In this document: positions 49-21,569 of the stretch, one piece after another
Layout of the letters: each line of letters starts with the position of its first letter
How positions within the stretch are numbered: the first letter of the stretch is position 1
Assembly (NCBI GenBank): GCA_013203345.1
Contig: JABMQF010000032.1
Location: 1-52,657 of the forward strand
Length of the DNA: 52,657 bases
Direction: 5' to 3'
Origin: Candidatus Woesearchaeota archaeon
GTDB taxonomy: Archaea; Nanobdellota; Nanobdellia; Woesearchaeales; UBA11576
Program-made: the position numbers and the translations under genes
Notes under the pieces: generated by a model
What the model saw: the letters and a program-made list of their open reading frames with translations, nothing else
The model's database searches: none
What the model was told of the DNA's origin: nothing

Positions 49-173
49 CGTATTCTCCTTTAAAACACCAAAGGATACCACTACAAGAAACTATCACCGT
101 AACATAATTACGGTTAAGAACATTTTATATGTTCACCACAAACTATAAAAGAAGCCCTATTAGGTATGTTTGC

Positions 174-2372
174 ATGGCAGAAAAAATTCCCATAGTATTT
201 GTATTCCCTCCAGGTGGGCTGTTCTCTGATTTCCAGCAGTATATAGGAATATATTATCTTATTGCGTATCTTAATAGTAAAGGTATACATTCAGAACACT
301 ACCTGTGCGACAAGCCCAAGCCTATCTCAGAAGTCGTTGATGATATCATCGCAAAGCGACCAAGGATAGTGGGCTTTTCCTGCAAAGACACTAACTATCC
401 ATTCATCAAGCTGATGAGTCAGCTCATAAAAGCCAAAGATCCGAATATCCTGATTATTGTAGGCGGGCCAGCTGTGCCTTATATCAAACGATTCATACTC
501 GAAGATTCTAAGGGGGTTGATGTGTGCATAGCATTCAATGCAGAGGAAAAGCTTGAACTCATATTCAATCGTCTGGATTCCAACAAACTTGCATCAATAG
601 ATGATATCGAAGGAATTATGCTTAAATCAAAGGGGATAATAAAAGACAATAATTCTGATTCCATGAAAGTGATGAAGGATCTTGATATCTTTCCTTCTCC
701 GTATATAAATGGAGTGCTTGACAAGAACTTAGGGGTCATAACCTCACGAGGATGCCCTTTCCGCTGCAGTTATTGCAATTATGCGACAGTGCTCAAGAAT
801 ACATTCTGTAAGCATTCTGTCAAGAGGGTTATTGATGAACTCAAGTTTCTAAATAAGATGTATCGTAGTGGGCAGGCAGAATCCAACTGGGTAAACCTTA
901 ATGACTCAATATTCAGTTTTGATATCAAAAGGGCTAAATCCCTCTGCAAAGAGATAGAAAGTAATCATTTCAATCTGCGGTTGAGCGTAACAACAAGAGC
1001 AGATTACTGTGACACAGAACTTTTAGATCTTATGAAAAAAGCTAATTTTGTAGAGATTAATTTTGGTCTGGAATCTGCTTCATTAAGGATTCTGAGGGCT
1101 ATGAAGAAACTACCTTCAAGTGATGAGGCTGACGAGGAATATAATGCAGAGAAGACATTTCTTGAACGTCTCAAGCATCTTGTAGCCCATGCTAAATCAA
1201 TAGGTATAGAGAGTGTGCAGGCTAGCGTGGTTTTTGGTTTTCCTGGCGAGACGCTCAAGGATGCCCAGATGACACTTGACTTTGTCAAAAGCCTAGAACT
1301 GGATTCATACTCTCATCATATTCTTGAGGTGTACTCTGGCAGTCCTATATACAGGGAGGGTATGCTTGACAATAGAATAGCATTTGAACCTAACAAATTC
1401 CCTCTAAGGATAAAATACCCTGAATATATCAGCAAGGTGAAGCCATTGGACAATGCTGTTGAGATAATCAATACGATGCGGTTGCGTTACCAGGGAATGT
1501 TTCTTGACTGTTTTTCTGCCCAGCAGAACCAAGAAGAGAATCCTTTTAGCGAGGTTGTCCTTCTCAACCCCTCTTGCATGTCTTCTGAATTGAAATTCAA
1601 GACATTGGAATGGATAAAAAAGTATATGACTTTCTCCTGCAGGCTTGTGGTTGTTGAAGAGATGAATTATTCTGAACAAGATGTCAAGGAATTCAAGACA
1701 CTCCTGTCTACAGTAGGTGTACCGACCTCATTCTATCTCCTAACATCCTGTGTTAATCCAAAAGGAATCTTTGCCTGTAATGACTGCAAGCCTTCAGCGT
1801 ACATCAGAATAGAGAACAATCATGAAGTTGGGGGTAGTCCTCTTAAAGATATCTGGATAAGACCATTGGATGACTGCCTTAGTAAGATGAATTCTACTAA
1901 AGACGACTCTTATTACATGACTTATCTTAAAGCAGATAGTGTGCAAGAAATAATACAGACATATTCAGATGCAAGTAAGGTAAATCAGAAATGTGCAATG
2001 GTTTATGATGAACGTCTTGTCTTTATCGACAGCTGCAGGTGGTTGGATGAGCCCTGCCCTGCCATTAAACTAAATAGGGTCATAATAGATGAGAATGGAG
2101 ACATAAGACCTTGCTTTGATTCGCCTATAGTGGGTGATGTCGGCATGTCAAAGGAACAAATAATCTCGCGGCTTAATAAGATGAATGTCTGTGATTCCAG
2201 GTCCTGCAATGAGTGTGAAGAGGAATACAACTGCTCAAAATGCATGTTCGTGGATGATTCTCTCAAAAGATTGTTTTGCAGCAGTACAGGCAAAGATATG
2301 AAAAAAATCATTTCTAAGAAGAAAAAATCTTATTTTGATGTAATAATGCCAGACTTTTTACTGAATAAATAA
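174..2372 (+). CDS. B12-binding radical SAM protein with C-terminal SPASM-like Cys-rich domain (putative peptide maturase)
   Basis: N-terminal cobalamin-binding-like region (GIYYLIAYL, IVGFS, IIVGGP); CxxxCxxC in TSRGCPFRCSYC; GLES; GFPGET; C-terminal CPA...IDENGDIRPC...CNECEEEYNCSKC. ORF opens at 129; ATG 174 preferred because TATAAAA lies at 144-150. Confidence 0.85.
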   Translation: MAEKIPIVFVFPPGGLFSDFQQYIGIYYLIAYLNSKGIHSEHYLCDKPKPISEVVDDIIAKRPRIVGFSCKDTNYPFIKLMSQLIKAKDPNILIIVGGPAVPYIKRFILEDSKGVDVCIAFNAEEKLELIFNRLDSNKLASIDDIEGIMLKSKGIIKDNNSDSMKVMKDLDIFPSPYINGVLDKNLGVITSRGCPFRCSYCNYATVLKNTFCKHSVKRVIDELKFLNKMYRSGQAESNWVNLNDSIFSFDIKRAKSLCKEIESNHFNLRLSVTTRADYCDTELLDLMKKANFVEINFGLESASLRILRAMKKLPSSDEADEEYNAEKTFLERLKHLVAHAKSIGIESVQASVVFGFPGETLKDAQMTLDFVKSLELDSYSHHILEVYSGSPIYREGMLDNRIAFEPNKFPLRIKYPEYISKVKPLDNAVEIINTMRLRYQGMFLDCFSAQQNQEENPFSEVVLLNPSCMSSELKFKTLEWIKKYMTFSCRLVVVEEMNYSEQDVKEFKTLLSTVGVPTSFYLLTSCVNPKGIFACNDCKPSAYIRIENNHEVGGSPLKDIWIRPLDDCLSKMNSTKDDSYYMTYLKADSVQEIIQTYSDASKVNQKCAMVYDERLVFIDSCRWLDEPCPAIKLNRVIIDENGDIRPCFDSPIVGDVGMSKEQIISRLNKMNVCDSRSCNECEEEYNCSKCMFVDDSLKRLFCSSTGKDMKKIISKKKKSYFDVIMPDFLLNK

Positions 2373-2405
2373 TTCTGCTCATCACAAATCCAGATTTATA
2401 ATAAT

Positions 2406-2414
2406 AAAAAAAAA
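2406..2414 (-). terminator. Oligo-T archaeal terminator after the 59-aa peptide gene
   Basis: A9 on + strand (T9 on minus) immediately after the stop codon. Confidence 0.5.
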
Positions 2415-2594
2415 TTAGAACCTTGTATCTGCTGCAATTGACTTGTTAACATTAGGGTTCTTTTTTGTCTGTGAATTGCTAGGATGTATAATCACCTGGT
2501 GCATATTAACTCCCGATCCCCAGACAAGAAGAACTGGCTTTGATGCTTTATCAAGATTTATTATTCGCATGCTCGATTTTTTCAGTGCTGTCAT
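2415..2594 (-). CDS. Unannotated 59-aa peptide MTALKKSSMRIINLDKASKPVLLVWGSGVNMHQVIIHPSNSQTKKNPNVNKSIAADTRF (candidate precursor peptide)
   Basis: Hand translation; SD AAAGGAGGT (2602-2610) just upstream of ATG; TAA directly followed by a T9 tract; just below the 60-aa ORF cutoff. Confidence 0.7.
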   Translation of the reverse strand: MTALKKSSMRIINLDKASKPVLLVWGSGVNMHQVIIHPSNSQTKKNPNVNKSIAADTRF

Positions 2595-2708
2595 TGGTAT
2601 GACCTCCTTTTATTATTTTCATCAATTAAACTAACATTTATTTTAAATCTTTTGTTTTTGAATGTGCTATTTTGCTGTAATATGAGTATTTGCACCATTT
2701 GCTCCGCC

Positions 2709-4040
2709 TCAATCATTCCTGTCAAGCATGACTATTGTTGGGTTCACAAGATACTTATCTGCTACGCTTATCATTTGCGCGTCAGTCAAGTGATTGATTA
2801 TGCTGGCAAGGTCAGAATTGCTTAGGTCGTAATCAATTATCTCCTTGAACAATGCATCAAAATTCTCATCTTCATATACTTCTCCTGCCATCTTTATAGA
2901 CGCTTTCACAGATCTCTTAATTGTTTCTAACTCTGCTTCTGTGATTCTCTCACGACTGATCTTCTCTATCTCTTCCAATGTGAGTGTCTTAACTTCTTCT
3001 AGCTTGCCAGGTCCTGTCTGAACAGTGATTATGAATGCAGAATACAGTTTTGTTGTATGTAATTCTACCCTAGGAGAATATGCCAAACCCCCTTTTTCCT
3101 CTCTAAATAGCCTTAGCAGTCGCGTATTCAGCTGGGCTGAGACCAGCTTGAGTCTGAACAGGTCTTCAAAGCTGGCAGATGGAGAGATAAGATATCCTAT
3201 CATCAAAACAGGCGATTCAGTGTTATCATCCATCACAATCTTCTCTATTGTCAAAGGCCTTACTGGAATCTCTTCTTTACTTTTACTTTCTTCCACAACA
3301 GGCATGTCCCTACTTAGAATTCTTATGTTGTTCACCATCACTTCAGTATCAAAATTGCCTGTGATTGATACAGTCATCCTGCCTGGCCCCACATATGCCT
3401 CATGCTGCAATACCAGGTGTTCGCGCGTAATGGATGTAATATCTTCAGCAGAAGTCACCGTCCCTAAAGGTGTGTCCCTGAAAAATGTTCTTGTAAACAT
3501 ATCACCAAGTTTTGATTCAGGATAGTATTGAGATGAGTTCAACGTTTTTATGTAATTATTTTGGATAAGTTCCAGCATATCTTCAGTTAAAGAAGGGTCT
3601 TTCAATATGTCAAACAATATCTTGGCAGATTCTCCAAGATTCGCGCTGTCAGAGACCAGGCCGAATCCCTTGAAATCGTCCTGATCAATAGGATACACAT
3701 AGACACCAAGCTGCGAGAACGCATTGTTTATCTGTTCTGTATTCAAAGTTCCAGTTCCGGTTGGCATAAGATTGAAAAGCACATCATTCAAACCAGGCTT
3801 GTGTTGTTCGTCTGGGAATTCATCATAAGGCGATAACTGCACTCCAATATGCATAGCTACTCTGTCGTGTCTGTGATCCTCTTGCATGAGTATCACTAAC
3901 CCATTCTCAAGTATCACTTTCTCATACCCATTAATGGATGGCTCACGAGAAATAACTGTAGTGTGTTGTTGGTCACTACCACATCCAGCAAGAAGTGACA
4001 TGACCAGTATTATTGCAAGCAATCCTATTTTTATCTTCAT
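2709..4040 (-). CDS. M16B peptidase-like lipoprotein, catalytically inactive subunit
   Basis: LENGL..., RLFREEKGGLAYS motif; HxxEH replaced by NDVLFN; lipobox LLAGC; 4-nt overlap with partner. Confidence 0.85.
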   Translation of the reverse strand: MKIKIGLLAIILVMSLLAGCGSDQQHTTVISREPSINGYEKVILENGLVILMQEDHRHDRVAMHIGVQLSPYDEFPDEQHKPGLNDVLFNLMPTGTGTLNTEQINNAFSQLGVYVYPIDQDDFKGFGLVSDSANLGESAKILFDILKDPSLTEDMLELIQNNYIKTLNSSQYYPESKLGDMFTRTFFRDTPLGTVTSAEDITSITREHLVLQHEAYVGPGRMTVSITGNFDTEVMVNNIRILSRDMPVVEESKSKEEIPVRPLTIEKIVMDDNTESPVLMIGYLISPSASFEDLFRLKLVSAQLNTRLLRLFREEKGGLAYSPRVELHTTKLYSAFIITVQTGPGKLEEVKTLTLEEIEKISRERITEAELETIKRSVKASIKMAGEVYEDENFDALFKEIIDYDLSNSDLASIINHLTDAQMISVADKYLVNPTIVMLDRND

Positions 4041-5386
4041 TTTGGTTCTGTTATTAGCATTACGCGATTATTAAGATATGTTCCTGCAAGCCGTTTGATG
4101 TCATCAATTGAAATGCTATTTACCAGTTCAACATCACTGTATATCTGGTTCATTTCCTCTTCTTCGCGAACATCATTGTTAATGGCGTAACTCACAAGGA
4201 GTTCAGCTTCATCATCCATTGTGTAGAATCTCTGTTCCATCTGCAGTTTCATGTTATTCTTGTGCTTTTCTAGTTCTTTAATGTTAATATTCCCTGATCT
4301 CATCATATCAGCAATAGACTCAAAGCCAGACAGGATTTGTTCTTCATTTTCAGAAGAGAACATAGCTCCTACTATGATGCTGTTATCATTTTCCAGATCA
4401 TGGAGGTATGCTGCAGCGTCTAATGCTATACCACTCATCATAAAAGTTTCTGAAAGTTCTTCATTGAGAATGGATCCAAGTATCAGCAAGGCGAACTTAT
4501 CTTTTTTTGTTAGATTACCAGGAATCTTATATCCTAATTGTACGATTTCAATGCCGACATCCTGCTGGATTCTCTGCGTTTTGTTCTCCTCAGCAGGGTT
4601 CAACTGCAACCTTTGCTTCACAACCCGTGTTTGGTTATTTAATGTTTTAAAGGCGGTTTCAACCAAAGAAATTGCCTTGTCTGTGCCTATATCCCCAACT
4701 ATTGATATGTATATATTATCGGTTGTGAAAAAACGCGCATGGTAGCTGTAAAGCATATCAGGAGTTAAATTCAAAAACAGTTCAGGGTAGCCTATAGTTT
4801 CATAGACATAAGGATGATCGCCGTACAGAATGTCCATGAATCTTATGCTGGTCGCATAGAAAGGGTCATTGAGTTCAGTAAGATATTCCTCGTATATGAC
4901 CTGTTTCTCTCTGTCGAATTCCTCTTCAGTAAAAATGGGGTTTACTATCATGTCTGAGTAGGTCAGGAATACTTCCTCGAAATCCTCTGGAAGAGAACTG
5001 AAAAGAAATGTTATGTGATCTCTTGATGTGTAGGCATTGGCGTTCGAGACACCTAATGATCTAAAGTAATCAGAGAAGAACAAGCCGTGCTTTGCCTTGA
5101 TTGTCTTAAAGAACATGTGCTCCAGGGAATGAGCCATACCTCTTGTTGAGTCGTTCTCATTAACTGACCCTGCCTTGACCACAATCTGCATTACAACTTT
5201 AGGATGCCTATGGTCTTCTTTCACAATGAGAGTGATACCATTGTTAAGTTTTGCAAAAGATATAGGAGTTTCAGAATTGACAGGATGATATGTATCTTTT
5301 AGTTCAAGCACAGGTGTTTGGGTTGAATCGCACCCTGCCAGGATAAGAATGATTATGATTATAAAAAATTGTAACCTCATTTTCAT
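4037..5386 (-). CDS. M16B zinc peptidase lipoprotein, active subunit
   Basis: GMAHSLEHMFF (HxxEH), NAYTS, EKQVIYEE, HPY; lipobox ILAGC. Confidence 0.9.
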   Translation of the reverse strand: MKMRLQFFIIIIILILAGCDSTQTPVLELKDTYHPVNSETPISFAKLNNGITLIVKEDHRHPKVVMQIVVKAGSVNENDSTRGMAHSLEHMFFKTIKAKHGLFFSDYFRSLGVSNANAYTSRDHITFLFSSLPEDFEEVFLTYSDMIVNPIFTEEEFDREKQVIYEEYLTELNDPFYATSIRFMDILYGDHPYVYETIGYPELFLNLTPDMLYSYHARFFTTDNIYISIVGDIGTDKAISLVETAFKTLNNQTRVVKQRLQLNPAEENKTQRIQQDVGIEIVQLGYKIPGNLTKKDKFALLILGSILNEELSETFMMSGIALDAAAYLHDLENDNSIIVGAMFSSENEEQILSGFESIADMMRSGNINIKELEKHKNNMKLQMEQRFYTMDDEAELLVSYAINNDVREEEEMNQIYSDVELVNSISIDDIKRLAGTYLNNRVMLITEPK

Positions 5387-5764: not shown

Positions 5765-6054
5765 AAAAAATGGAACAATTCTCAAACACAAACAGAGAAT
5801 ATTCAGATATAGATGACTTTGAACCCACTCAGGCAGTTATTGAAGAATTAATAAAATCTCAACAGACAAGAAAGACAATACTGCACATAGTTACACACTC
5901 AATAGCATATATTATTCTAGTTCCGTTCGCACTGATAATCATCTACAACACACTAACCAACACAACACAACCCATCCCAACATACTTTATATCTATAGTA
6001 TCTATTGTAATTGGATTCTACTTTGGTGGAAAAGTACTACAAAAGAAATCATAA
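5761..6054 (+). CDS. Small 2-TM membrane protein
   Basis: Two hydrophobic segments ending IVIGFYFG; coupled to the RHH gene. Confidence 0.65.
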   Translation: MKKMEQFSNTNREYSDIDDFEPTQAVIEELIKSQQTRKTILHIVTHSIAYIILVPFALIIIYNTLTNTTQPIPTYFISIVSIVIGFYFGGKVLQKKS

Positions 6055-6098
6055 AAATCCGCAGAAATTACGCTATTGACAATTTCTTTTGAAAGCGA

Positions 6099-6132
6099 AT
6101 TTTAGGATGCCAAAAATTTTGTGAAATTTTTG
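6099..6132. repeat. REP-like palindrome (TTTTAGGA..CAAAAATTT-N4-AAATTTTTG)
   Basis: Inverted repeat 6111-6132 in a convergent intergenic gap; related copy at 7534-7566 in opposite orientation. Confidence 0.5.
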
Positions 6133-6140
6133 CGCATAAT

Positions 6141-7759: not shown

Positions 7760-9193
7760 TTATTTGTTCTTTTCAGCATCTTCGAATAATGAAGAAATCT
7801 CTTCCAAAGTTAAATAAGTCATTTTCTTTGTGTCCAGGTATTCAATACACTCTTTGGTGAATCCTGATTTGGATATTAGTAAGTATTTGAATGATCCCGA
7901 AGCATTTATGAATACTGATTTTCTGACTAAGTCTTCAACCATAGGAATATTCACAGGAGTATTTTTCCACTTCACTTCGCAAATAATTAATTCTCGGTCT
8001 TTTGTGTTATTAACGACCAAGTCAATCTCTTCTGCTTTACCATCAGAATTTTTTCCCCACCAAGGACCAATCTGATCAAAATTTATTTTCAAGTTCTTTA
8101 TTTTCTTACCATTGTATAAAATTAACAATTCTCGGACAATGTCTTCAAATTTATGACCGATAAAACTATTGATATCCTTATTGATTTTTTCTCTCAAAAG
8201 TTCCATATTACCTAACTCTATTAATGATAAATTTGAAAAGATATATTTATACCAAAAGTGAAAAAAATTATCTTCAAAAGCATACCTCGGTTTTGGTTTT
8301 TTAGAGTGGAATAAAGGGTCTCTTGTACCAATTATATGAAGAAGGTCTTTAAGATTGTTAAGATAATAATTTACGTCTTTTTGCTCAACACCTGACTGGA
8401 TGACAATCTCTTCACGTGTGCCGTTTGTTGTGGAAATTGCATGAAGTATAGAATTGTAATTTGTTTCTTTTGTCAATTCCATCATGATAAAATTTGTGGG
8501 TTCATCTCGTAAAGGTGCTGTTTTCCTTAAAACCATCTTTTCAATTATTTGTATCAATTCTTTCTGAGAATGTTTTTTGACAAACCATAAGAAATGAGGC
8601 GTTCCACCAAAAACTGAATATATTTCAATTCTCTTTTTCTCGTCCAAATCGCTGAACATATCTCGAAAATCAAGATACCTGAATGGTTTGAATGGCATTT
8701 TCCAAGTCATTCTACCATATAACGGAGCAGTCTTGTCCATAAAAATATCATACATCATGCTCATAGATGAGCCGATAGCTACAAATAGAATCTTTGACTT
8801 GCTTAGTTTATTATCCCAATAGTTCTGAAATTTGGATAGGAATTCTGGCGCATGGTCTTTTAATCGTGAAAATTCATCCATAACAAAAACAAATTTTTGT
8901 TTTGAAGCTTTTTTATATAAATATTCAAAGAAGTCTTCCCACTCAATAAATTTTTCGCGTTCACCAGTTTGATCGTAGATATCTTCAGATAGTATTCTTA
9001 ACAGTTCTTTTTTATTTGCTTTGTTAACAAAATAATAAACTGCTTCTCCATCAATTTCATTCATAAACCTCTTGATAAATTCAGTCTTTCCAAGTCTTCG
9101 TCTACCATAAATGATGCATAATTCTCCAGAATCAATCTCATCATATTTACCTGATAAATCCTTTAATTCGTTTGTTCTATCATAAAATTCCAT
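7760..9193 (-). CDS. Archaeal AAA ATPase with wHTH, DUF234 and C-terminal PD-(D/E)xK-like domain
   Basis: FYDRTNEL, Walker A GRRRLGKT, Walker B VMDEF, GGTP, DNFFHFW, EIDLV...EVKW. Confidence 0.9.
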   Translation of the reverse strand: MEFYDRTNELKDLSGKYDEIDSGELCIIYGRRRLGKTEFIKRFMNEIDGEAVYYFVNKANKKELLRILSEDIYDQTGEREKFIEWEDFFEYLYKKASKQKFVFVMDEFSRLKDHAPEFLSKFQNYWDNKLSKSKILFVAIGSSMSMMYDIFMDKTAPLYGRMTWKMPFKPFRYLDFRDMFSDLDEKKRIEIYSVFGGTPHFLWFVKKHSQKELIQIIEKMVLRKTAPLRDEPTNFIMMELTKETNYNSILHAISTTNGTREEIVIQSGVEQKDVNYYLNNLKDLLHIIGTRDPLFHSKKPKPRYAFEDNFFHFWYKYIFSNLSLIELGNMELLREKINKDINSFIGHKFEDIVRELLILYNGKKIKNLKINFDQIGPWWGKNSDGKAEEIDLVVNNTKDRELIICEVKWKNTPVNIPMVEDLVRKSVFINASGSFKYLLISKSGFTKECIEYLDTKKMTYLTLEEISSLFEDAEKNK

Positions 9194-9217
9194 TTTTTAT
9201 TACTCGTGAAAGGAAAC

Positions 9218-9385
9218 CGGATAGCGATTAGTTCATTTAGCGGAACAAGTTCCGCACATATAACGGATTAAAATCCGGTCTTTGCATTATAAAAACACCT
9301 TTCCTTTAAATACTTTTACAATTAATCCTCTAACTTGCAATAGTTTAGCGGATTAGAATCCGGTAATTGACCGGACTCTGCTCCG
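9218..9385. promoter_or_regulatory. Array of CGGA-N6-TCCG palindromes (putative operators)
   Basis: Full sites at 9241, 9264, 9349, 9372 and a half-site at 9218; 23-bp spacing within each group; upstream of the ATPase gene. Confidence 0.6.
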
Positions 9386-9728
9386 CATATTACTATGTGC
9401 TTCACACACACTCGAAAATTACTAAATTAGCCGTTTAAATCCTCTAATATATTTTCATACTCTTTCATACTAATCTCCCCATAAGCCATCCTTTTCTTTG
9501 CTATGTCCATCAGGTCTACAGCCCAAGACTGTTAGTCATTGCGCGTACTCTGTATGAACATTGATGTAAATCCTCAAATTAGCGTCACGGTTTTTGGGCC
9601 TAAAATGATCAGTCAAGCCTTTATATCATTAAACTTTACAAAATTAGGAAAAAACTCAGATACTGAAAGATTTTTGGATTTTGCACGATAATATTTATAA
9701 AGAAAACAATACTAAACCTTGTAATTAG

Positions 9729-10430
9729 GTGATTCATATAAACGCTCAACCATACTCACATAGCAAAGTATCTGACTTTATGTCAGTTTTCAATGACGTT
9801 CTCGATAGTTTATTTGTCAAAAAAGACCATACAATAAATGCTAAACTAGTAATCAGCCATCTCCAACAAAGGCAACTCGATACTAAGAAAATTCAGAGTT
9901 TTATGAGTAAATTACCAGAAGGTGAATGGAGTGTAAACGTCTTTGTAGACAATATTGAAGAACTTAATGAGATTTTTGGTCTGTCTGATCAGGAAATTGT
10001 CCAACAAGCTGTCACAGAGCTGGGTAAGGAAGACATTCCACAGGTTAGATGGAAGATTGTGATTGAGTCTCTGACAGAATACTCTAGATTCTCAACCGAG
10101 TTTTACGATGCGCTTAAGTATAATATCTCATCGGATTTAAGTGTTTCACAGCTAAAGCTTCTAAATGAATTCATGTTAACTTTCAAGATAATTAAAAAAA
10201 CTTCTGTTGAGTTGTATGATAAATTTCGAAACAGGAAATTATCCCAAAGAAATATACGTGAGCTAAACAAAGTGAGAGTTGTCCTTGAATTCTTCATTTT
10301 GAGATTGTTATATATATCCATTAATTTGAAGAATACTGATGATAAGAAATTCGAGCAGTATGCAAAATTGCTAGGTAAGGAAAGAATTGCACTAATGTAT
10401 CAAAAAGCTTATCTTCCAAAATTCAGTTAA
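9729..10430 (+). CDS. Hypothetical protein (possible partner of downstream PIN-like protein)
   Basis: 233-aa ORF, 2 nt from the next gene; start may be ATG 9780. Confidence 0.7.
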   Translation: MIHINAQPYSHSKVSDFMSVFNDVLDSLFVKKDHTINAKLVISHLQQRQLDTKKIQSFMSKLPEGEWSVNVFVDNIEELNEIFGLSDQEIVQQAVTELGKEDIPQVRWKIVIESLTEYSRFSTEFYDALKYNISSDLSVSQLKLLNEFMLTFKIIKKTSVELYDKFRNRKLSQRNIRELNKVRVVLEFFILRLLYISINLKNTDDKKFEQYAKLLGKERIALMYQKAYLPKFS

Positions 10431-10432
10431 AA

Positions 10433-11185
10433 ATGAAAATTTCTTCTGATGTTAATTGTATTTTTGCATACGCTGATCCGCAACATATATTCCATAGGCC
10501 AGTTATATCTTACATTGTGAAGAAACAAAGAGATACCTTTGTCCTATTATCGAAGTTGAAAAGTAATTTTATGTACACATATAAGGACTACTTGGCAACA
10601 TCTTGTATAATAATCGAAAAAGCTATCCGAGATGAAAGGACAATCCGTGATGCATCACCCTCAAAAACATACAAGCCCAGCATTCTTTCAATATCAGCAA
10701 ACATCAATTCAAAAATTGAGAAATACCTTCTAGAAGAATCGGAAAAGTGTCTGAATTTTAACATGTCTGGCACACGAAAATTCATAAACATAATACTGAC
10801 AGAGTTCTCCATTCCCAAGCTATATGAAGACAACGAAGTATTGGCTAAATTTCGTGAAAAATATGTTGTTGAAGCCGAAAAACAAGCCGAAGAAGTCGTA
10901 AATCGTTTCATAAAGAGATTCAACAATTTTGAATGTGTAAATATCGAAGATTACTCTATGTATGATAAATGGACGACCCGAATAAAAAAGAGTAAACATA
11001 ATGTATTCCAGAACAAACAAGATGTTGAAGATATAAGTATTGCATCAGAATTCTTAGCATTCAATTCCGAAAAAAGTAAACTGGCATTCTTCACTAGCGA
11101 TGTTAATTGTCATAAATCCATACTTAAAATAGCCAAAGAATACTCGCTTAAGACAGGACACTTACATCTAATTACGAAGTCGTGA
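10433..11185 (+). CDS. Divergent PIN-domain-like protein
   Basis: N-terminal SSDVNCIF and C-terminal DVEDISIA...FFTSD match PIN acidic motifs. Confidence 0.6.
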   Translation: MKISSDVNCIFAYADPQHIFHRPVISYIVKKQRDTFVLLSKLKSNFMYTYKDYLATSCIIIEKAIRDERTIRDASPSKTYKPSILSISANINSKIEKYLLEESEKCLNFNMSGTRKFINIILTEFSIPKLYEDNEVLAKFREKYVVEAEKQAEEVVNRFIKRFNNFECVNIEDYSMYDKWTTRIKKSKHNVFQNKQDVEDISIASEFLAFNSEKSKLAFFTSDVNCHKSILKIAKEYSLKTGHLHLITKS

Positions 11186-11199
11186 AGAGACAGTTGACG

Positions 11200-11814
11200 T
11201 CAAACCTCATTAAAAAACTTCACAGCAAATTCACAGAATCCTATTATGACTTCCTTATCAAGTTCAAACTCAGATCTATTTCCTAAGTAATTCTTAGATG
11301 TCAAAGTGACTTTCTTGCCATCCTTAAGCTCACCATATGTAATACACTTGATATGCTTCTTTGACACAACAACGAAATAACAGTTCTCATAAGGGTAATC
11401 TTTAGGTAAATCTTTAAAAGAAAATTCTTCATTTGCCCGAAACTTGACTTCAATAAAGAAAACATCTTTCCGGTGAGGATGCTGAACTACAAAATCAGGC
11501 ATTCTTCGTATGTTTGTAGCAACTTCACTTTTTATACCTTTTAACAAATCCATTATACCTGGAACAGTATTCTCCATACCATAACGAAATACATTATACC
11601 CTAAAGATAGAAACAACTCTTCAATCAAAGTTTCAGCTATCCTTCCCTTAATCATACCTTCCTTATACCTGCTTTCTTTCTTGGTCAAACCCTGGTTGTT
11701 GCTGGATTTTTGATGTTTTCTGCACAATGACTTACCGAGCTTTTTCATTGAGAATTCATACTCCTTGGAAGTTATCTCCTGCTTACAGATAGAACAATGG
11801 TATTTCATCAACAA
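11200..11814 (-). CDS. PD-(D/E)xK nuclease-family protein with N-terminal Zn-finger-like region
   Basis: GRIAE...MPDFVV...FIEVKFR; CSIC...CRKH. Confidence 0.8.
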   Translation of the reverse strand: MLMKYHCSICKQEITSKEYEFSMKKLGKSLCRKHQKSSNNQGLTKKESRYKEGMIKGRIAETLIEELFLSLGYNVFRYGMENTVPGIMDLLKGIKSEVATNIRRMPDFVVQHPHRKDVFFIEVKFRANEEFSFKDLPKDYPYENCYFVVVSKKHIKCITYGELKDGKKVTLTSKNYLGNRSEFELDKEVIIGFCEFAVKFFNEV

Positions 11815-11983
11815 TCAAATAATAATAGATTATATAAAATATACCCACACATCATTCACCTCAATTTCTCAAAATACTCTTTTGTGAAGTATAGCTTTAC
11901 AAGCCAAAAAGTGTACTCGAATAAATCATATTTTACCACCCATAGGTAGTTTTATAAATATATCTTTTAAATTAATAGGGAAT

Positions 11984-14581
11984 ATGCTCAGATCTAGCGC
12001 TAAAAAAATAATCAAAATCATCGAAGAAATTAATACGCTGAAGTCTCGAAAAATATGGGGCTACATCACAATACCAATCATTGTTGGATTCTTCATTCTT
12101 CAAAGATTGAAGAAAAAAATAACTGATTTGGAAGAGTCCAAAGAGCAGGTCATGAAAGAATTAAAATCCTTTGTGAATAATACCACCAACAATACAAGAG
12201 ATACCCTCTCTGAAATCAAAACAAATGACACCTATCTCACATATAATATAAGAAATGAGTTAAACCAAAAACTATCACAAAATTTAAAAGAAATAATATA
12301 TCTGAAGGAGAAAGAAATATATTTTGGTGACTCGCTTAATACAGCACTGACAAAAGCACAGGATATCCTAACTCAGTCTATCAATCAAATCAACGTTTTT
12401 AACAAAGAGTTTGTTGAAAGAAGGAAGGAAGAATACAGTTACCTGTTTAAGAAAGGACCTTTTCCTCTTGATGATAATCAGAAAACAGCCATAGTTACGG
12501 ATGAAAAGCACAATATTGTAGTGGCTGGAGCAGGTTCTGGTAAGACAGAAGTTCTCACTACAAGAATTGCTTATCTGATAAATAGAAAACCCGACATAAT
12601 TAAATCGACGAGAATTCTTACCCTAGCATTCCAGAACAAAGCAGCAGAAGAGATAAAACATAGACTCAAGAAAAGATACGATGTTGATGTAGAAATCAGG
12701 ACATTTCATTCACTCGGTCTTAAGATTATTGGAGATATCTCCAAAATGAAAGGAGTCAAACCCCCAAAACTCAAAGAAGAATGCTCAAAGGATGGAAAAT
12801 ATATGATATTCATGCAGGATCTCTTCTATAAGGAGTTCCAAAATAACCCTGCACTAAAGAATGAGATCATTAACTTCATGAAATTGTATGGTGATACCGA
12901 AGTTATAAGAAAAGAGACTGACTTCAAGACAAAAGAGGAATTCTACGAGTATCAACGAAGCTTAAGATACACTACTCTCGACGGAACAAACGTGGAGAGC
13001 GAGTCTGAACGTGCTATACTAAACTTCTTTGTCTCGCACAACATAAATGGAAAAAAGATCAGGATTCTGTATGAAGAGCCCGCAAAATGGATGAAGTACA
13101 AAAACCAGGAAGGAAATGAGCAGATTCCTCAACCTGACTTCTATTTCCCAGATTTCGATATATATCTTGAGCATTGGGCAATCGGGAAAAGAGGCACAGT
13201 CCCTAACTGGTTTGCAGGGGATAATCCTACAAAAGAGTATACTGACAGTATGAATCTTAAGAAGTCGAAATACGCAGAACATAAAAAGGTCCTGATTGAG
13301 ACATCGCAAGCAGATGTAGAATCTGGAAAACTCAATGAAGAGCTCGAGAAACGATTCCTAAATGCGCTGAAAGAAAAATATCCTGATGAAAAGCACGAGC
13401 TAACAACAATAACATATAATGAGTTAGTCAACCGCGTGTGGGAGGAGTGTAAAGAATTTGTAAAGGTCATATCCAAAAACATATCAAAATATATCACAAT
13501 AGCAAAGACATACAGGTCCTACCCTGCTGATATTATCAAGCGACTTGAAAAAGAGCAATGGTCCCCTAAACAAAGAGCCTTCGCAAGAATCGCAATTATG
13601 ATATACACGAAATATGAGGAAGATTTGCGAAGAACAAACTCTATGGACTTTTCGGATATGATAAACATTGCTGTTGATTTCCTGAGAGAAAATCCGGAAG
13701 CATATGAGGACACATACGACCACATCCTTATTGATGAATATCAAGACATAAGCACACAAAGATACGACATGATAAAAACTCTCATGAATAAGAATCCCTC
13801 TTGCAAGCTATTCTGCGTAGGGGATGACTGGCAGAGCATAATGGGATTTTCAGGATCAAATCTTGACTATTTTGTGAACTTCTCTAAGTATTTCCCGCAT
13901 CCAGAAAGGACAGATCTAATTAGGAACTACCGCAGTTCAAAATCGATTGTTGATACTGGCAGCACAATCATTAATGGTAATATAGGTCAGATCAAGAAGC
14001 AGACATTAGCAATATCGGAAAACATACAGAAGATTAAAGTGTATTCGTTGCTGCATCAGAAGGATTACTTTATGCCTTATTACGATCAGACAACCAAACA
14101 TTGCCTGAAAACAATCAAGGAGTACCATACAAAGAAGAACTACAAATATAGTGACTTCATGATTCTTATGCGAATAGCTAAAAACACTAAGATCTGGAAT
14201 CTACTGAAAAAGAATTCTAATCAATTAGGAATACCTATAACAGAGTCACAAAAGACACCAAATGCGGTGCGGATCATGTCAGTTCACAAGAGCAAGGGTT
14301 TACAGGCTAAAGTCGTTATAATCATTAATCTAAATAGCGGGCCGTATGGTTTCCCATGCGAGCTGGAAACTCCCAATATTTATTACACTGCTATAAGTAA
14401 AGATGACGGACTAAGAAAACAAGAAGAAAGGCGTCTGTTCTATGTTGCAATCACAAGAGCCAAAAAAGAAGTTATTATATACACTCAAAAATGCTCAATG
14501 AGCAAATTCATCGATGAGATTAAAGATCACATAGAAATAGAAGAATTGCAGTACGGTGAGGCTAGAAAGACAGCAAATTAA
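11984..14581 (+). CDS. UvrD/helicase IV-like SF1 helicase with N-terminal TM segment and inserted nuclease-like domain
   Basis: AGAGSGKT, TFHS, IDEYQD, VGDDWQSI, NYRS, HKSKGL, EERRLFYVAITRA; insert ESESERAI...PDFYFPDFDIYLEHWA; hydrophobic IWGYITIPIIVGFFIL. Confidence 0.9.
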   Translation: MLRSSAKKIIKIIEEINTLKSRKIWGYITIPIIVGFFILQRLKKKITDLEESKEQVMKELKSFVNNTTNNTRDTLSEIKTNDTYLTYNIRNELNQKLSQNLKEIIYLKEKEIYFGDSLNTALTKAQDILTQSINQINVFNKEFVERRKEEYSYLFKKGPFPLDDNQKTAIVTDEKHNIVVAGAGSGKTEVLTTRIAYLINRKPDIIKSTRILTLAFQNKAAEEIKHRLKKRYDVDVEIRTFHSLGLKIIGDISKMKGVKPPKLKEECSKDGKYMIFMQDLFYKEFQNNPALKNEIINFMKLYGDTEVIRKETDFKTKEEFYEYQRSLRYTTLDGTNVESESERAILNFFVSHNINGKKIRILYEEPAKWMKYKNQEGNEQIPQPDFYFPDFDIYLEHWAIGKRGTVPNWFAGDNPTKEYTDSMNLKKSKYAEHKKVLIETSQADVESGKLNEELEKRFLNALKEKYPDEKHELTTITYNELVNRVWEECKEFVKVISKNISKYITIAKTYRSYPADIIKRLEKEQWSPKQRAFARIAIMIYTKYEEDLRRTNSMDFSDMINIAVDFLRENPEAYEDTYDHILIDEYQDISTQRYDMIKTLMNKNPSCKLFCVGDDWQSIMGFSGSNLDYFVNFSKYFPHPERTDLIRNYRSSKSIVDTGSTIINGNIGQIKKQTLAISENIQKIKVYSLLHQKDYFMPYYDQTTKHCLKTIKEYHTKKNYKYSDFMILMRIAKNTKIWNLLKKNSNQLGIPITESQKTPNAVRIMSVHKSKGLQAKVVIIINLNSGPYGFPCELETPNIYYTAISKDDGLRKQEERRLFYVAITRAKKEVIIYTQKCSMSKFIDEIKDHIEIEELQYGEARKTAN

Positions 14582-14846
14582 TGCTTGGACGTAGCCTGGA
14601 GATGCTCCCTTACTCGGAAAAAAATTAATGTTTTTAATAGAAAACACTGTTAAATAAAAAATATAAATACAATTTAAACGAAATATAACACATAATAATT
14701 TGACTACAGATATTTTTTACTGAAAAAGAAAAATTGTTTAAAATGGTGAATGAATCAAAAAAAATAAAAAGATATCCGGATTATTGTACGAGAACACCAA
14801 AAAAGATAAACATATACTAATAAAACTATAAAATACCCGAACGAAA

Positions 14847-16295
14847 ATGCCACTACTAACCAAATCCAAATACCTAAACGGCCTTCAATGCCCTAAGCTA
14901 CTCTGGACTGTCATCAATGATAAAGGATCCATGCCCCCAGTAGATGCTGCCACTCAGCATTTATTCGATCAGGGCCACACAGTAGGAGATCAAGCCAAGG
15001 CGTGGTTTCCAGAAGGTATTCAAGTACCAATAGACTTCAAAGAAAACATTGTACAGACCAGACAATTAGTCCTCAAACGTAAACCTTTGTTTGAACCTGG
15101 ATTCTTAATCAACAACCTATACGCAAGAGCAGATATCATAACTCCTGTAGAAGATGATAAATGGGATATCATAGAAGTAAAGAGTTCTACTCAAGTAAAA
15201 GACATCAACATACAAGATGTTGCTTTTCAGAAACATGTTTATGAAAAGTTTGGATTAAAGATTAGAAATTGTTATCTTATGTTCATAAACAATGAATATG
15301 TAAGACAAGGAGATATTGATTCAAAGCAGCTTCTGAAAATGCAGGAAATTACAGACGAAGTCAATGCCATTGCAAACATCCAGGAAAATATTGATAAGAT
15401 GTTTGAGATAATTTCAAAAAATCGTCCTACTGTCAAAATAGGCCCGCAATGCAGTGCTCCATATGCTTGCGCTTTAAATGATAAATGCTGGGCCTTCCTC
15501 CCAGAGCATAATGTCTTCAATCTGTATTATGCAGGAAAGAAAGCATTTGAACTCTTCCAATCAGGCATTACAGACATCAAAGACATACCGAATGATTATA
15601 ATCTTAATCCAAAACAGCTAATCCAGAAGAACGCAGTCACAACAGGACAAACCCATATAGACAAAGAAGCAATAAAGTCCTTCGTGCAAGGCCTGGAATA
15701 TCCAATTTATTATCTGGACTTTGAAACAATAAATCCAGCAGTTCCTTTGTTTGATAACACAAGACCATACCAACAAATACCCTTCCAGTTCTCCCTACAC
15801 ATAGAGCAAGAAGACAACTCTATAGAACACCATGAGTTCCTCCACAACAACAACACAGACCCAAGACCAGCATTCATAACAGCCCTAAAAAACGTTTTAG
15901 GAAACTCAGGCACAATCATCGCATTCAACCAATCCTTTGAGATAAGCAGACTAAGAGAACTCTCAGAAACCTTCCCAGAATACAAGGAGTGGTACAACCA
16001 CCTGTTACCCAGATTCATAGACCTCATAGTACCATTCAGGAACTTCGATTACCACAACCCAAAACAAAAAGGCAGCAACTCACTAAAAGCAGTATTACCC
16101 GCAGTGACAGAAAAAGGATACGACAACCTGGAAATCAACAACGGCGGAGATGCCAGTTTGGCTTATCTTGATATGATATGCGGAGATATGACACCAGAAA
16201 AGAAAGAGAAGACACGAAAGAATCTGTTGAAGTACTGCTGTCTAGATACCGAAGGGATGGTTTGGATAGTAGGGGAGTTGAGGAAACTAGTATGA
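14847..16295 (+). CDS. DUF2779 domain protein (N-terminal PD-(D/E)xK/Cas4-like, C-terminal RNase H-like)
   Basis: LTKSKY..GLQCPK, ARADI, IEVKSS, DVAFQ, YLDFET, QQIPFQFSLH, SLKAVLP, LKYCCLDT. Confidence 0.85.
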   Translation: MPLLTKSKYLNGLQCPKLLWTVINDKGSMPPVDAATQHLFDQGHTVGDQAKAWFPEGIQVPIDFKENIVQTRQLVLKRKPLFEPGFLINNLYARADIITPVEDDKWDIIEVKSSTQVKDINIQDVAFQKHVYEKFGLKIRNCYLMFINNEYVRQGDIDSKQLLKMQEITDEVNAIANIQENIDKMFEIISKNRPTVKIGPQCSAPYACALNDKCWAFLPEHNVFNLYYAGKKAFELFQSGITDIKDIPNDYNLNPKQLIQKNAVTTGQTHIDKEAIKSFVQGLEYPIYYLDFETINPAVPLFDNTRPYQQIPFQFSLHIEQEDNSIEHHEFLHNNNTDPRPAFITALKNVLGNSGTIIAFNQSFEISRLRELSETFPEYKEWYNHLLPRFIDLIVPFRNFDYHNPKQKGSNSLKAVLPAVTEKGYDNLEINNGGDASLAYLDMICGDMTPEKKEKTRKNLLKYCCLDTEGMVWIVGELRKLV

Positions 16296-16390
16296 TAATA
16301 TAAACAAATAATCATGCTCAATGCTTATTCATATGTTAAATCAGTAATTCCAATAACACCCCTTCATAATTGAATGCTGATCGCTTCAAT

Positions 16391-16921
16391 TTAATTATTC
16401 GGTTCTCGCACAGATACAGAATTAAGACCAACCTCATCAGCAACTTCTTTAACTCTTTTCTTTTTTGTCCTCTTCACAAACTCACCATCCATCGTCAATA
16501 GGACATTACAATCTTCCCTCATTGCAGTGGCCAGATGAACACAATCAGTTAAATCAAGACCTCCGAACTTTGACAGGACAACTTCAAGAATTTTCTCAAC
16601 ACCATCATTACCCACAACCTTCAACAAACCCGCGCTTTGGCAATTAAAAAGATGAGTTACAAACAGGTTAAGGTCATTTCTAGCTTGGTCTTCATCCAAT
16701 TTTCCTGACTTAATTCTCTTATCTAACTTGAAACAAACATTTCCAACCGCTTCACCAATGCTTAAATGACTCGTAACAGGTTGAATCTTACCATTCTTGG
16801 CATTAAGCAACTTACGATAAATATCTTCATTAACATCTAAGGTACAAGCGTCATAATAGTGCCTTTGCCCTTTTTTCACATTAACAACTACAGCACTTCT
16901 TGACTTTGACATAGAATTCAC
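16391..16921 (-). CDS. PIN-domain protein (VapC-like toxin)
   Basis: YYDACTL, SIGEA, DCVHLATA, LLTMDGEF. Confidence 0.75.
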   Translation of the reverse strand: MNSMSKSRSAVVVNVKKGQRHYYDACTLDVNEDIYRKLLNAKNGKIQPVTSHLSIGEAVGNVCFKLDKRIKSGKLDEDQARNDLNLFVTHLFNCQSAGLLKVVGNDGVEKILEVVLSKFGGLDLTDCVHLATAMREDCNVLLTMDGEFVKRTKKKRVKEVADEVGLNSVSVREPNN

Positions 16922-17115
16922 TTCCTAAAAATATTTCTTCTTACACATTCCTTCAATGAAGCTTCTACTCGTAGAATAGCATCCACTTTTCTCACAGGAG
17001 ACGATGTTACCTTAAACACCTGCTCTCCTCGCATATCAATTTTTCTGAACATATATATATCTGGAATGACTATTCTCGCTTCCTTAGCTTGAACTTTAAC
17101 TAATTTGGCAGGCAT
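16918..17115 (-). CDS. Small basic hypothetical protein
   Basis: 65 aa, overlaps both neighbours, so probably the middle gene of a 3-gene operon. Confidence 0.55.
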   Translation of the reverse strand: MPAKLVKVQAKEARIVIPDIYMFRKIDMRGEQVFKVTSSPVRKVDAILRVEASLKECVRRNIFRK

Positions 17116-17603
17116 TTTTGAAGGACCCCCTCTTCTCTTAATACCATTTCAACCTCGTCATCGGTTGGGTCTTTTAACTTACACAACCGAACTTTAGCAG
17201 CACTTTCAGATAAACGAGCCTCAGTTAGTAACCAATGATATGTAGCAATCAATTCAAGATCCTCAAAAGTTTTATTTCCCAAAAATACTTGGAGACTCCT
17301 AAAAGCTTCTTCCTTATCCTGGCTTGCAAATTTATCAGGTTTAATCTCTATATTAAACTCGTCAACTCTAAAAAGATCATTTGCTAAATCAGGTGAATAA
17401 GGGCCTCTCCAGTACAAATTATAACAATAATGAGGCGAAACACCAAATAACTGAGCAAAATATTGCTTCTTTTGTGTTTCGATTCTATTTTTTAAAGTAT
17501 CAAGTTTTCCTGCTCCCAAACGCTTTAGCACACCGCAAGCTAATAAAGCAACATCATACGGTTTTTTTAATTTTGATATATCAACACCACTCATCACATA
17601 CAC
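17100..17603 (-). CDS. Panacea/DUF4065 (YwgA-like) antitoxin-like protein
   Basis: QKKQYF, YNLYWRGPYSPDL, LELIATYHW motifs. Confidence 0.65.
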   Translation of the reverse strand: MYVMSGVDISKLKKPYDVALLACGVLKRLGAGKLDTLKNRIETQKKQYFAQLFGVSPHYCYNLYWRGPYSPDLANDLFRVDEFNIEIKPDKFASQDKEEAFRSLQVFLGNKTFEDLELIATYHWLLTEARLSESAAKVRLCKLKDPTDDEVEMVLREEGVLQKCLPN

Positions 17604-17817
17604 CCATATCTCTAAATATATATAAGATCGTTGAGTTTAAAACATTTTCGTTTATAAATCAACATAAATTCCGATAAACAAAAAAATCACTCCTTTCTAA
17701 TATATTTTATCCGGAAAAGTCCAGTGTCCAGTGGTACAAACAACAAATCTGAGTTTTTGTAAATCCTCCGATTTTCCCTCAACAACACTTATTAAACCAT
17801 TTTACTTAATTATACAC

Positions 17818-18486
17818 ATGCGTATCAGAGAAATCTCACCAGAAAATAGACCAAGAGAAAGACTAGCCAAACTTGGGTCATCTGCACTCTCAGATGCTGA
17901 ACTTTTAGCAATCATTCTAAAAACAGGCAATAAAGAAGAAAACGCTATAGACATTTCAAACAGATTGATCTCCAAGTATGGATTAGATAAACTATCTACT
18001 TGTTCCTTAATTGAGTTACAATCAATCAAAGGAATAGGTAAAGCTAAATCTTCCCAAATTCTAGCATCATTTGAACTTAGTAAAAGATCAAAGATTTCTC
18101 AAAATAAAGAAATAAATTGTTCAAAAGATGTTTTCGCCATATATCACTCAAGACTATCTGAGTTAGATAGAGAGATCTTTATGGTTCTCCACCTAGACAC
18201 CAGAAATCAATTAATCAATGATGAAATCATCTCTATTGGCACCTTAAATGAAGCTATAATTCATCCCAGAGAGGTCTTCAAATCAGCCATTAAACAAAGC
18301 GCTAATTCAGTAATACTTGTTCATAATCATCCATCTGGTGATCCTTCTCCTTCTCCTGAAGATGAAGAAATAACAAGAATAATACGAGAAGCAGGAGATT
18401 TACTTAAAATCAAAGTTCTAGACCATATAATCATCGGCAAGAACAAATTCTACAGTTTCACCGAAGATAAAGGGTTAAATCCGTAA
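17818..18486 (+). CDS. radC: RadC/JAB-domain protein
   Basis: RPRERL...LSDAELLAIIL, GIGKAK, HPREVF, HNHPSGDPSPSPED, VLDHIIIG. Confidence 0.95.
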   Translation: MRIREISPENRPRERLAKLGSSALSDAELLAIILKTGNKEENAIDISNRLISKYGLDKLSTCSLIELQSIKGIGKAKSSQILASFELSKRSKISQNKEINCSKDVFAIYHSRLSELDREIFMVLHLDTRNQLINDEIISIGTLNEAIIHPREVFKSAIKQSANSVILVHNHPSGDPSPSPEDEEITRIIREAGDLLKIKVLDHIIIGKNKFYSFTEDKGLNP

Positions 18487-18518
18487 TATATATAAGCATG
18501 TGTAAGTATGTGCAATTC

Positions 18519-18662
18519 ATGAACACTAAAAATATTACACTAAAAGTCAATGCTGATCTTTATGATCGATATCGCGAATTCTGCAAAAAGAAAGGTTGGA
18601 TTGCCTCCCGACAATTCGAAATCATGATGGAAGAACAAATGGGAGAGAATGAAGATGACTGA
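18519..18662 (+). CDS. Unannotated 47-aa RHH protein MNTKNITLKVNADLYDRYREFCKKKGWIASRQFEIMMEEQMGENEDD
   Basis: Hand translation; beta-strand KNITLKV plus helix pattern; TATA (TATATATAA ~18487) upstream; stop overlaps hsdR start (ATGACTGA). Confidence 0.75.
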   Translation: MNTKNITLKVNADLYDRYREFCKKKGWIASRQFEIMMEEQMGENEDD

Positions 18663-21414: not shown

Positions 21415-21415
21415 G

Positions 21416-21568
21416 ATGGCAAGATTCAAGAAATACGGAAGATACTGGTATACTACTCGTGCAGAAGCAGAAGCGGCTCGAAGATTTAATGAACGTATAT
21501 ATTATGATGAAGGAATGAGAGCATATTATATTATTCGTCCTCAAAGTAAAGGGTTTTGGGGTTTCTAA
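21416..21568 (+). CDS. Unannotated 50-aa aromatic/basic protein MARFKKYGRYWYTTRAEAEAARRFNERIYYDEGMRAYYIIRPQSKGFWGF
   Basis: Fills the gap exactly: 1 nt after the hsdR stop and 1 nt before the next ATG. Confidence 0.7.
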   Translation: MARFKKYGRYWYTTRAEAEAARRFNERIYYDEGMRAYYIIRPQSKGFWGF

Positions 21569-21569
21569 A

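Follow-up and report, generated by a model that had tools for sequence, protein, structure and literature searches.

Radical S-adenosylmethionine (SAM) enzymes that mature peptides are commonly grouped either as cobalamin-dependent methylases or as SPASM enzymes. The stretch of DNA analysed here (hereafter the window) is the 52,657-nt contig C22 of a Candidatus Woesearchaeota archaeon genome (1.69 Mb in 144 contigs, 89% complete), and near its start lies a gene for a 732-aa radical SAM protein, rSAM-732, in which a B12-binding domain and a SPASM-like domain appear together. We read rSAM-732 as the last gene of a five-gene cluster split by an insertion sequence (IS), and the radical SAM enzymes of this cluster as most likely modifying a ribosomally made peptide or protein; the probability that we attach to this reading is roughly 0.55. 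Radical SAM tailoring clusters are a known kind of system, and what appears new is the family that fuses B12-binding, radical SAM and SPASM-like domains, together with the IS-split cluster.

Among described enzymes the closest in fold are the class B proteins CysS (9n1b), TokK (7kdx), TsrM (6wte) and MgmA/QCMT (9ccb), the top Foldseek neighbours of the rSAM-732 model at E ~1e-18 (2.4e-18 to 1e-17 over 436–529 columns), which likewise carry an N-terminal B12-binding Rossmann domain and a CX3CX2C barrel. Their identity to rSAM-732 is 16–18% and they leave its C-terminal eight-Cys domain uncovered (query-normalised TM-score 0.40–0.46); beyond them, rSAM-732 has a middle domain of ~200 aa as well as the SPASM-like domain. 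Its best NCBIfam match is ApyD (NF050148), at 136.3 bits over the B12-binding and radical SAM core, and because 136 bits stands against a cut-off of 750, with profile positions 66–365 of 645 alone covered, rSAM-732 does not belong to the ApyD family; it also lacks the recognition element (RRE) for peptides made on the ribosome and modified after translation (RiPPs). The accessible text of PMC10635010 presents ApyD as an RRE-containing B12-dependent radical SAM enzyme that makes beta-methyltyrosine in aminopyruvatide, a ribosomal peptide, and does not describe it with a SPASM domain. With the SPASM maturases PqqE, AlbA, anSME and SuiB, rSAM-732 shares the C-terminal arrangement CX13GX4C...CX2CX5C..C...C and the predicted order of hairpin and helix, and SuiB appears in its Foldseek list at E 1.5e-5; unlike these enzymes, it has an N-terminal B12 domain, ~200 residues between barrel and SPASM-like domain, and a final CX2C instead of CX3C. 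The full texts searched, which leave out supplements and most subscription journals, contain no description of a family that fuses B12-binding, radical SAM and SPASM-like domains, in many members together with an RRE.

The features at the start of the window are as follows.

1–124, no strand assigned: terminus ('end A') of a multicopy IS and contig break, from read depth, contig identity and terminus match

125–136, no strand assigned: 12-nt target-site duplication TTATATGTTCAC, from a reverse-complement match; its second copy lies at the IS end on contig C107

174–2372, plus strand: radical SAM protein of 732 aa (B12-binding, Radical_SAM, ~200-aa middle and eight-Cys SPASM-like domains), from Pfam, structure model, Cys motif and hhalign

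The open reading frame (ORF) of rSAM-732 runs from 129 to 2372 on the plus strand; its homologs, once aligned, point to the ATG at 174 as the start, for a protein of 732 aa. Pfam recognizes a B12-binding domain (PF02310, 54.5 bits against a cut-off of 32.1, residues 24–128) and a Radical_SAM domain (PF04055, 54.1 bits, residues 188–371), and no further domain. All three cysteines of the CX3CX2C motif (C194, C198 and C201) are invariant among aligned homologs, and the B12-binding domain was found in 61 of 61 homologs. The full-length AlphaFold model (predicted local distance difference test score, pLDDT, 84.3; predicted TM-score, pTM, 0.88) shows at residues 635–702 the SPASM succession of beta-hairpin, helix and Cys-rich loop, preceded by an alpha/beta middle domain of ~200 residues. 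By domains and fold, the protein is classed as a cobalamin-type (class B) radical SAM enzyme, for which cobalamin binding and methyl transfer are predicted.

The last 110 residues of rSAM-732 hold eight cysteines (C621, C628, C647, C678, C681, C687, C690 and C702) with the spacing C628-x13-G642-x4-C647 ... C678-x2-C681-x5-C687-x2-C690 ... C702; seven of them are invariant in all 61 aligned homologs, and all eight are present in each of the ten closest (10/10). As given in the accessible text of PMC5715301, the SPASM seven-Cys motif is CX9-15GX4C-gap-CX2CX5CX3C-gap-C, every element of which occurs here, but with a final spacing of CX2C rather than CX3C. Because curated models miss the domain, we built our own SPASM profile, from 19 Pfam-SPASM-positive domains taken from genomes of relatives, and compared profiles; counts over relatives (the 40 relatives, the M16 orthologs, the SPASM-positive domains and the AsnB contexts) include the unpublished genome G004, and no claim is made on G004 alone. 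In hhalign, the C-terminal profile of 61 sequences matched the 19-domain profile with a probability of 84.3% (E 7.2e-6, 60 columns in register) and a profile of five full SPASM domains with 76.5%, and the reversed-query controls reached 1.9% and 1.5%, respectively. We therefore describe the domain as SPASM-like, homologous at the level of profiles to canonical SPASM domains, and its eight cysteines are predicted to be enough for two auxiliary [4Fe-4S] clusters. An earlier note on this DNA, made from the letters alone, had called a B12-binding radical SAM enzyme with an extra Cys-rich C-terminal domain of SPASM type; the Pfam domains and the eight cysteines at 174–2372 bear out the first part, and the profile comparison supports the second.

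Other searches with this region returned little. A word-based search of a 5.8-billion-protein collection with the C-terminal half scored only the protein itself among 986 candidates, the domain profile found nothing among PDB sequences (best E 0.27, DnaI), and PF13186 has no match in the window genome at E <= 1e-5. Residues 400–732 gave weak leads only in a protein atlas, including one cluster with SPASM on 39% of its members (score 0.86). Folded alone, the domain modelled poorly (pLDDT 59.9), and Foldseek drew nothing of use from that model (best E 3.7).

The first bases of the window belong to an IS. Positions 1–124 have a read depth of 24, against ~8 elsewhere (run X1), with three different continuations past 124/125, and positions 6–124 are identical to C136 1–119. 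Read inward, the IS termini of the window and of C107 match at 16 of 20 bases, which 44 of 5000 shuffles reach. Window positions 122–136 are the perfect reverse complement of C107 143–129, and TTATATGTTCAC becomes a direct repeat once C107 is reversed. C107 opens with the end of an rve-type transposase gene (its final 40 codons; rve_3, E 7e-4), which falls within 119 nt that recur without change at the beginning of C16; for a second copy of the IS, an 11-nt duplication is shared by a read-derived flank and the C16 flank. Since terminus and duplication together are the signature of one inserted IS, C107 (reversed), the IS and C22 are read as contiguous, one IS with its target-site duplication.

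It is this TTATATGTTCAC duplication, joining the window to C107, that makes rSAM-732 the last gene of a five-gene cluster. C107 holds three radical SAM paralogs and an AsnB-like gene, and the order in window orientation, with C107 reversed, is rSAM-659 (forward), rSAM-685 (forward), rSAM-676 (reverse), AsnB-like (forward), the IS and rSAM-732 (forward). Without the IS, 63 nt would separate the AsnB-like stop from the start of rSAM-732 on the same strand. The four radical SAM paralogs are old, sharing 26–31% identity, and fall within one clade of 18 tips (support 95), in which 676 and 685 are sisters (support 98) and 732 is nearest to 659 (support 82); the 659-aa paralog is without the Cys-rich end. 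In the AsnB-like protein the N-terminal Cys is intact (MCGIAG), and its GATase and Asn_synthase domains both score strongly. As a separate observation on this contig (L028, G000:C107), a C/A-rich direct repeat, CAACACAACTAACCCCCAC, in ~2 copies at 8440–8510 on the minus strand and without Rfam match, sits in the 740-nt spacer from the DAHP synthase gene to the first radical SAM paralog.

Evidence on substrate comes from the family in other genomes. A profile of the four paralogs of this genome was searched against 1.84 billion representative proteins, and the best 150 proteins listed all had E <= 1e-93, were mostly 700–880 aa long and in 126 of 150 cases carried the C-terminal CxxCx5CxxC motif. 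In one member, P0010, a PqqD domain is fused C-terminally (28.7 bits, cut-off 23.4), and jackhmmer started from this tail found 21 of 126 family members, query included (about one in six). The genomic contexts compared below are those of seven other family loci: L050, G323:C43, G323:C36, L137, L138, L139 and L140. L140 has, beside the family gene, a free-standing PqqD (38.3 bits), a weak PqqD-Memo match (19.8 bits, under the cut-off) and a further radical SAM gene, and L138 combines tandem family members with a radical SAM–PqqD fusion. A scan of genome contigs kept 80 loci, full-length family members being present only in L050 and L051 of these; the other long matches were tandem B12-binding radical SAM proteins of 450–560 aa.

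G323, the Chloroflexota metagenome-assembled genome (MAG) to which L051 belongs, has 12 family genes, nine of them in one tandem array (C-terminal profile E 1e-38 to 2e-25). On G323:C36 (L163, 8352–16724) a cassette of textbook form occurs twice, comprising a precursor gene, a PqqD gene, a gene for a 387–389-aa protein and a 742-aa family radical SAM gene. The precursors, of 53 or 68 aa, share the conserved leader MDISK..K.RKDYKEPVF.VV.VDYS.PTS and differ in their cores, which are rich in Gly, Val and Ala, and each precursor gene has its own promoter-like and Shine–Dalgarno (SD)-like signals. PqqD scores 41.7 bits in one cassette and is a shortened remnant of 64 aa in the other; the 387–389-aa protein has a GNGKST P-loop and no Pfam match. 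Elsewhere, the family thus bears the hallmarks of a peptide pathway, namely fused or adjacent PqqD domains and precursor genes. G323:C36 and G323:C43 have in common with the window genome the enzyme family itself, with several paralogs per genome in tandem; the leader-bearing precursor and the one full PqqD of G323:C36 have no counterpart in the window genome, and neither of the two G323 loci has an AsnB or M16 gene. The array on G323:C43 (L161/L162, 232000–251600) consists of nine consecutive B12/radical SAM/SPASM-like paralogs of 748–803 aa, interrupted by a gene for a 326-aa protein without known family and flanked by GNAT and PMT_2 membrane glycosyltransferase-like genes; no precursor was recognized at this array.

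The family is rare and patchily distributed. The 40 relatives contain no full-length match (the best, in a 464-aa frame, has 31% identity along the N-terminal 405 residues), and 300 other genomes of the archaeon's phylum contain no convincing one; four weak matches there have E values of 1e-4 to 5e-4, and in two the frame is interrupted by stops. In the phylum of G323, 0 of 300 other genomes had a family match, at most 16 candidates being scored per genome. The absence from sampled relatives would fit acquisition of the radical SAM cluster by horizontal transfer. Relatives of the same genus are without the fused family; in three of them a single contig stretch (G006:C2, 48–77 kb; G010:C3, 87–113 kb; G003:C5, 28–53 kb) contains an AsnB homolog (38–42% identity) and ordinary B12-binding radical SAM genes for 450–500 aa, with separate SPASM radical SAM genes in G006 and G010.

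The 3' side of rSAM-732 holds the following features.

2406–2414, minus strand: run of nine T (T9) directly 3' of the stop of the 59-aa ORF, from the sequence

2415–2594, minus strand: 59-aa orphan ORF, from SD sequence, TATA-like box and codon score

2709–4040, minus strand: M16 lipoprotein of 443 aa, putative non-catalytic partner (Peptidase_M16_C only, 81 bits; lipobox LLAGC; no HxxEH)

4037–5386, minus strand: M16 lipoprotein of 449 aa, putative catalytic subunit (Peptidase_M16 83.8 bits, M16_C 75.4 bits; HSLEH; lipobox ILAGC)

The 59-aa ORF is convergent with rSAM-732, 42 nt separating their stop codons, and is the only credible small-ORF candidate adjoining the cluster. We consider it probably a real orphan gene. 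The competing view is that it is no gene at all, the 336-nt spacer serving the M16 operon only as 3' untranslated and terminator sequence, with an SD-like hexamer that arose by chance, and we judge this unlikely, though it has several points on its side. No homolog of similar or greater length was found in the 5.8-billion-protein collection, neither the genome nor any of the loci retrieved contains it a second time, and Pfam and NCBIfam gave no match and the protein atlas no usable one. The T9 run, likely an archaeal oligo-T terminator for minus-strand transcripts, would suit the M16 operon equally. The organism uses SD sequences, since 169 of 1020 long ORFs (17%) have an SD-like core in front of them, the background being 2.8%; the pattern GGAGGT-N4-9-ATG, however, occurs at 109 sites genome-wide and a control hexamer at 111, so that the pattern alone is not enriched. 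The hexamer of the ORF, GGAGGT at 2607–2602, nevertheless forms part of a full AAGGAGGT at ideal spacing, 7 nt before the ATG, with a TATA-like TTTAAAATA at 2647–2639, 45–53 nt upstream. Codon usage likewise speaks for a gene: its log-likelihood of 14.6 is what 57-codon windows of real genes average (13.7, sd 6.9), and among 369 intergenic ORFs of 50–70 aa just 4.6% score as much. The exact 59-aa sequence is moreover present in the protein collection, hence was predicted by a gene caller. Rfam found nothing in the spacer between the radical SAM and M16 genes, nor on C107. A likeness of the N-terminus of the ORF to the G323 precursor leaders was rejected, as 37% and 64% of shuffles score as high.

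For the cluster enzymes themselves, a peptide or protein substrate appears rather probable, by analogy and from the contexts of the family in other genomes. Following class B enzymes, the CX3CX2C cluster would cleave SAM to a 5'-deoxyadenosyl radical, and cobalamin would then deliver a methyl group, or mediate another radical outcome, at an unactivated carbon, methylation being the likeliest chemistry on that analogy. The two auxiliary clusters predicted for the SPASM-like domain may relay electrons or hold the substrate, the four diverged paralogs could serve several sites or successive steps, and the AsnB-like enzyme would amidate a carboxylate.

A number of observations weigh against a peptide-modifying, IS-split cluster. 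The contig join rests on short-sequence logic, with no read spanning the IS, and the paralog tree has long branches and FastTree support only. Residues 401–732 of rSAM-732 have no SPASM match in Pfam (PF13186) or NCBIfam (TIGR04085) at E <= 10, and the Pfam SPASM model matches just 1 of 61 family homologs, at E 0.0069. No family member is characterized, so that the chemistry is argued by analogy only. No precursor-like gene was found between the genes of the cluster, and the genome has no gene resembling the G323 precursors and no counterpart of the 389-aa protein. PqqD (PF05402) was not found in the genome (89% complete), and none of the four paralogs has a PqqD tail. AsnB homologs adjoin ordinary B12-binding radical SAM genes in other genomes (L128, L078, L117 and relatives), glycosyltransferase-type genes (GT2, PMT_2 and DUF2298) occur at four of the seven other family loci, and the 59-aa ORF, with its gene-like signals, lies 42 nt beyond the rSAM-732 stop and may yet encode a substrate.

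Several of these points bear on the view that the four radical SAM enzymes and the AsnB-like protein act on something other than a peptide, such as a lipid, a cell-envelope glycan or a small molecule, which is true of many class B radical SAM enzymes. Neighbouring genes lend it some colour: GT2, PMT_2 and CDP-alcohol phosphatidyltransferase genes at L050, DUF2298 and GH17 at L137, a gene for a methyltransferase–GT2–TPR protein at L140, and PMT_2 and GNAT genes at the nine-gene array of G323:C43. The AsnB contexts and the missing PqqD point the same way, and the structural neighbours include the small-molecule enzymes TokK, CysS, AprD4 and OxsB. The family's own associations argue otherwise, in the PqqD-like tails fused to 21 of 126 members and the precursor–PqqD cassettes of G323:C36, and in the accessible text of PMC5715301 the SPASM domain of characterized enzymes is mostly tied to peptide or protein substrates. 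On balance we hold a non-peptide substrate to be rather unlikely and retain modification of a ribosomal peptide or protein as the preferred reading.

The M16 genes overlap by 4 nt in ATGA, and each protein opens with a signal peptide ending in a lipobox LAGC, from which an anchored position on the outside of the membrane is predicted for both. The 449-aa protein has its HSLEH at residue 86. As in YfmH/YfmF, PqqF/PqqG and AlbE/AlbF, one subunit with HxxEH is paired with an inactive one and the genes overlap; unlike in those systems, both proteins are predicted lipoproteins and there is no synteny with a maturase outside this genome. The best NCBIfam matches of the pair are YfmH and YfmF, far below their cut-offs (YfmH 80.2 bits against 250), and with 35.9 bits against a cut-off of 320 it is not a member of the PqqF model TIGR02110. 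Within the genus the pair is not a conserved feature; relatives have a single M16 protein of ~404 aa, which is also present in this genome on C59. The only orthologous M16 lipoprotein pair is that of G013:C61 (37% identity, E 1e-82), which has no radical SAM gene and no similar small ORF beside it, its neighbours being, as judged by eye from their sequences, a gene of methyltransferase type and one with an HD motif. The pair is most likely an independent cell-surface peptidase.

M16 pairs process RiPPs in other systems, for example PqqF/G and AlbE/F, and the earlier note had proposed on such grounds that the 59-aa peptide is the substrate of the radical SAM enzyme and loses its leader to the M16 pair, the convergent genes forming one pathway. 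Its description of the locus was accurate: the ORF at 2415–2594 on the minus strand is convergent with rSAM-732, has the GGAGGT SD sequence and the T9 run, and lies co-oriented downstream of two M16 genes, and the occurrence of the enzyme is as unexpected in the lineage as it had held, with no family member in the 40 relatives or the 300 phylum genomes. A peptide-modification pathway as such is supported by the PqqD domains and precursors of the family elsewhere; the trio of enzyme, ORF and M16 pair has adjacency as its only support. The synteny of the enzyme with an M16 pair that it had suggested looking for is absent, tblastn with both M16 proteins finding M16 genes at none of the seven other family loci, and the peptide is not conserved, having neither homolog nor paralog and a resemblance to the G323 precursors no better than that of many shuffled sequences. 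A search for an RRE in the enzyme and the genome likewise found none, the tail after C702 being 30 residues long and without PF05402 match.

The adjacency of radical SAM gene, ORF and M16 genes is real. Four public runs contain the region, all DNA runs from one freshwater study, and because contigs of two of them bridge radical SAM gene, ORF and the 443-aa M16 gene (X1 spanning 1252–3295 and X2 2197–2931), it is not an assembly artefact or join; the bridging runs may be the source samples themselves. The surrounding 25 kb, however, reads as a variable island with the radical SAM locus at its edge, and the adjacency therefore weighs little. That the ORF has gene-like codon usage and signals, and is the sole credible small ORF at a cluster whose family has RiPP contexts elsewhere, is still to be set against the lone M16 orthologs of G013, the lipoprotein signals of the M16 proteins beside a peptide with no signal peptide and no adjacent exporter gene, and the position of the co-directional radical SAM partners on the opposite side, across the IS. 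The earlier note had missed these partners because the window starts inside the IS. A complex prediction for rSAM-732 with the 59-aa peptide scored 0.00 against a mark of 0.32 and is evidence neither way. Taken together, the trio is improbable as a pathway, as is the 59-aa ORF as substrate of the enzyme, and ORF and M16 operon would merely abut the 3' end of the cluster.

It is likewise improbable that the whole region of ~14 kb, minus the IS, is one archaeal RiPP pathway in which four radical SAM enzymes and the AsnB-like protein tailor the 59-aa peptide and the M16 pair trims it at the cell surface. If true, this would give a DPANN-like archaeon with a small genome a RiPP pathway based on a new class of enzyme, which transfer may have brought in before the IS interrupted it.

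The remainder of the window contains further features. Just past an ORF for a 97-aa membrane protein, a repeat of ~60–97 nt at 6048–6140 has a depth of 58–90 against ~8 in its flanks and matches on >15 other contigs at 86–97% identity; it looks like a miniature inverted-repeat transposable element (MITE) or an intergenic repeat family. Positions 7760–25648 hold defence-type genes, encoding an ATPase_2/DUF234/Mrr_cat protein (477 aa), a UvrD-like helicase, a DUF2779 protein and a type I restriction–modification system (HsdR, HsdS and HsdM). On the minus strand at 31281–31401, Rfam recognizes a tRNA in full (59.4 bits, model positions 1–71), and its spread over 121 nt implies that ~50 nt are inserted, presumably as an intron of archaeal type; the window has no tRNA according to ARAGORN. 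Five large co-directional ORFs at 35668–47868 (382, 492, 549, 714 and 382 aa) have no significant Pfam match, the fifth showing weak DUF6712 only, and then comes a 1535-aa protein whose sole match is Metallophos near residue 1140. A 785-aa protein at 48014–50371, with DUF7107 and Dumpy DPY repeat modules, is probably a surface protein.

The value of the locus lies in the enzyme family and the IS-split cluster rather than in the pairing of a peptide with proteases, and it illustrates that contig ends at insertion sequences can conceal the true neighbours of a gene. Within its lineage the archaeon stands out by this cluster, a rare accessory trait that the other sampled genomes are without. The family joins the cobalamin and SPASM-like cofactor sets in one protein and multiplies within genomes, with four copies here and nine in a row in the Chloroflexota MAG, whose duplicated cassette on G323:C36 offers a tractable model system; characterizing one member of the family would define new chemistry.

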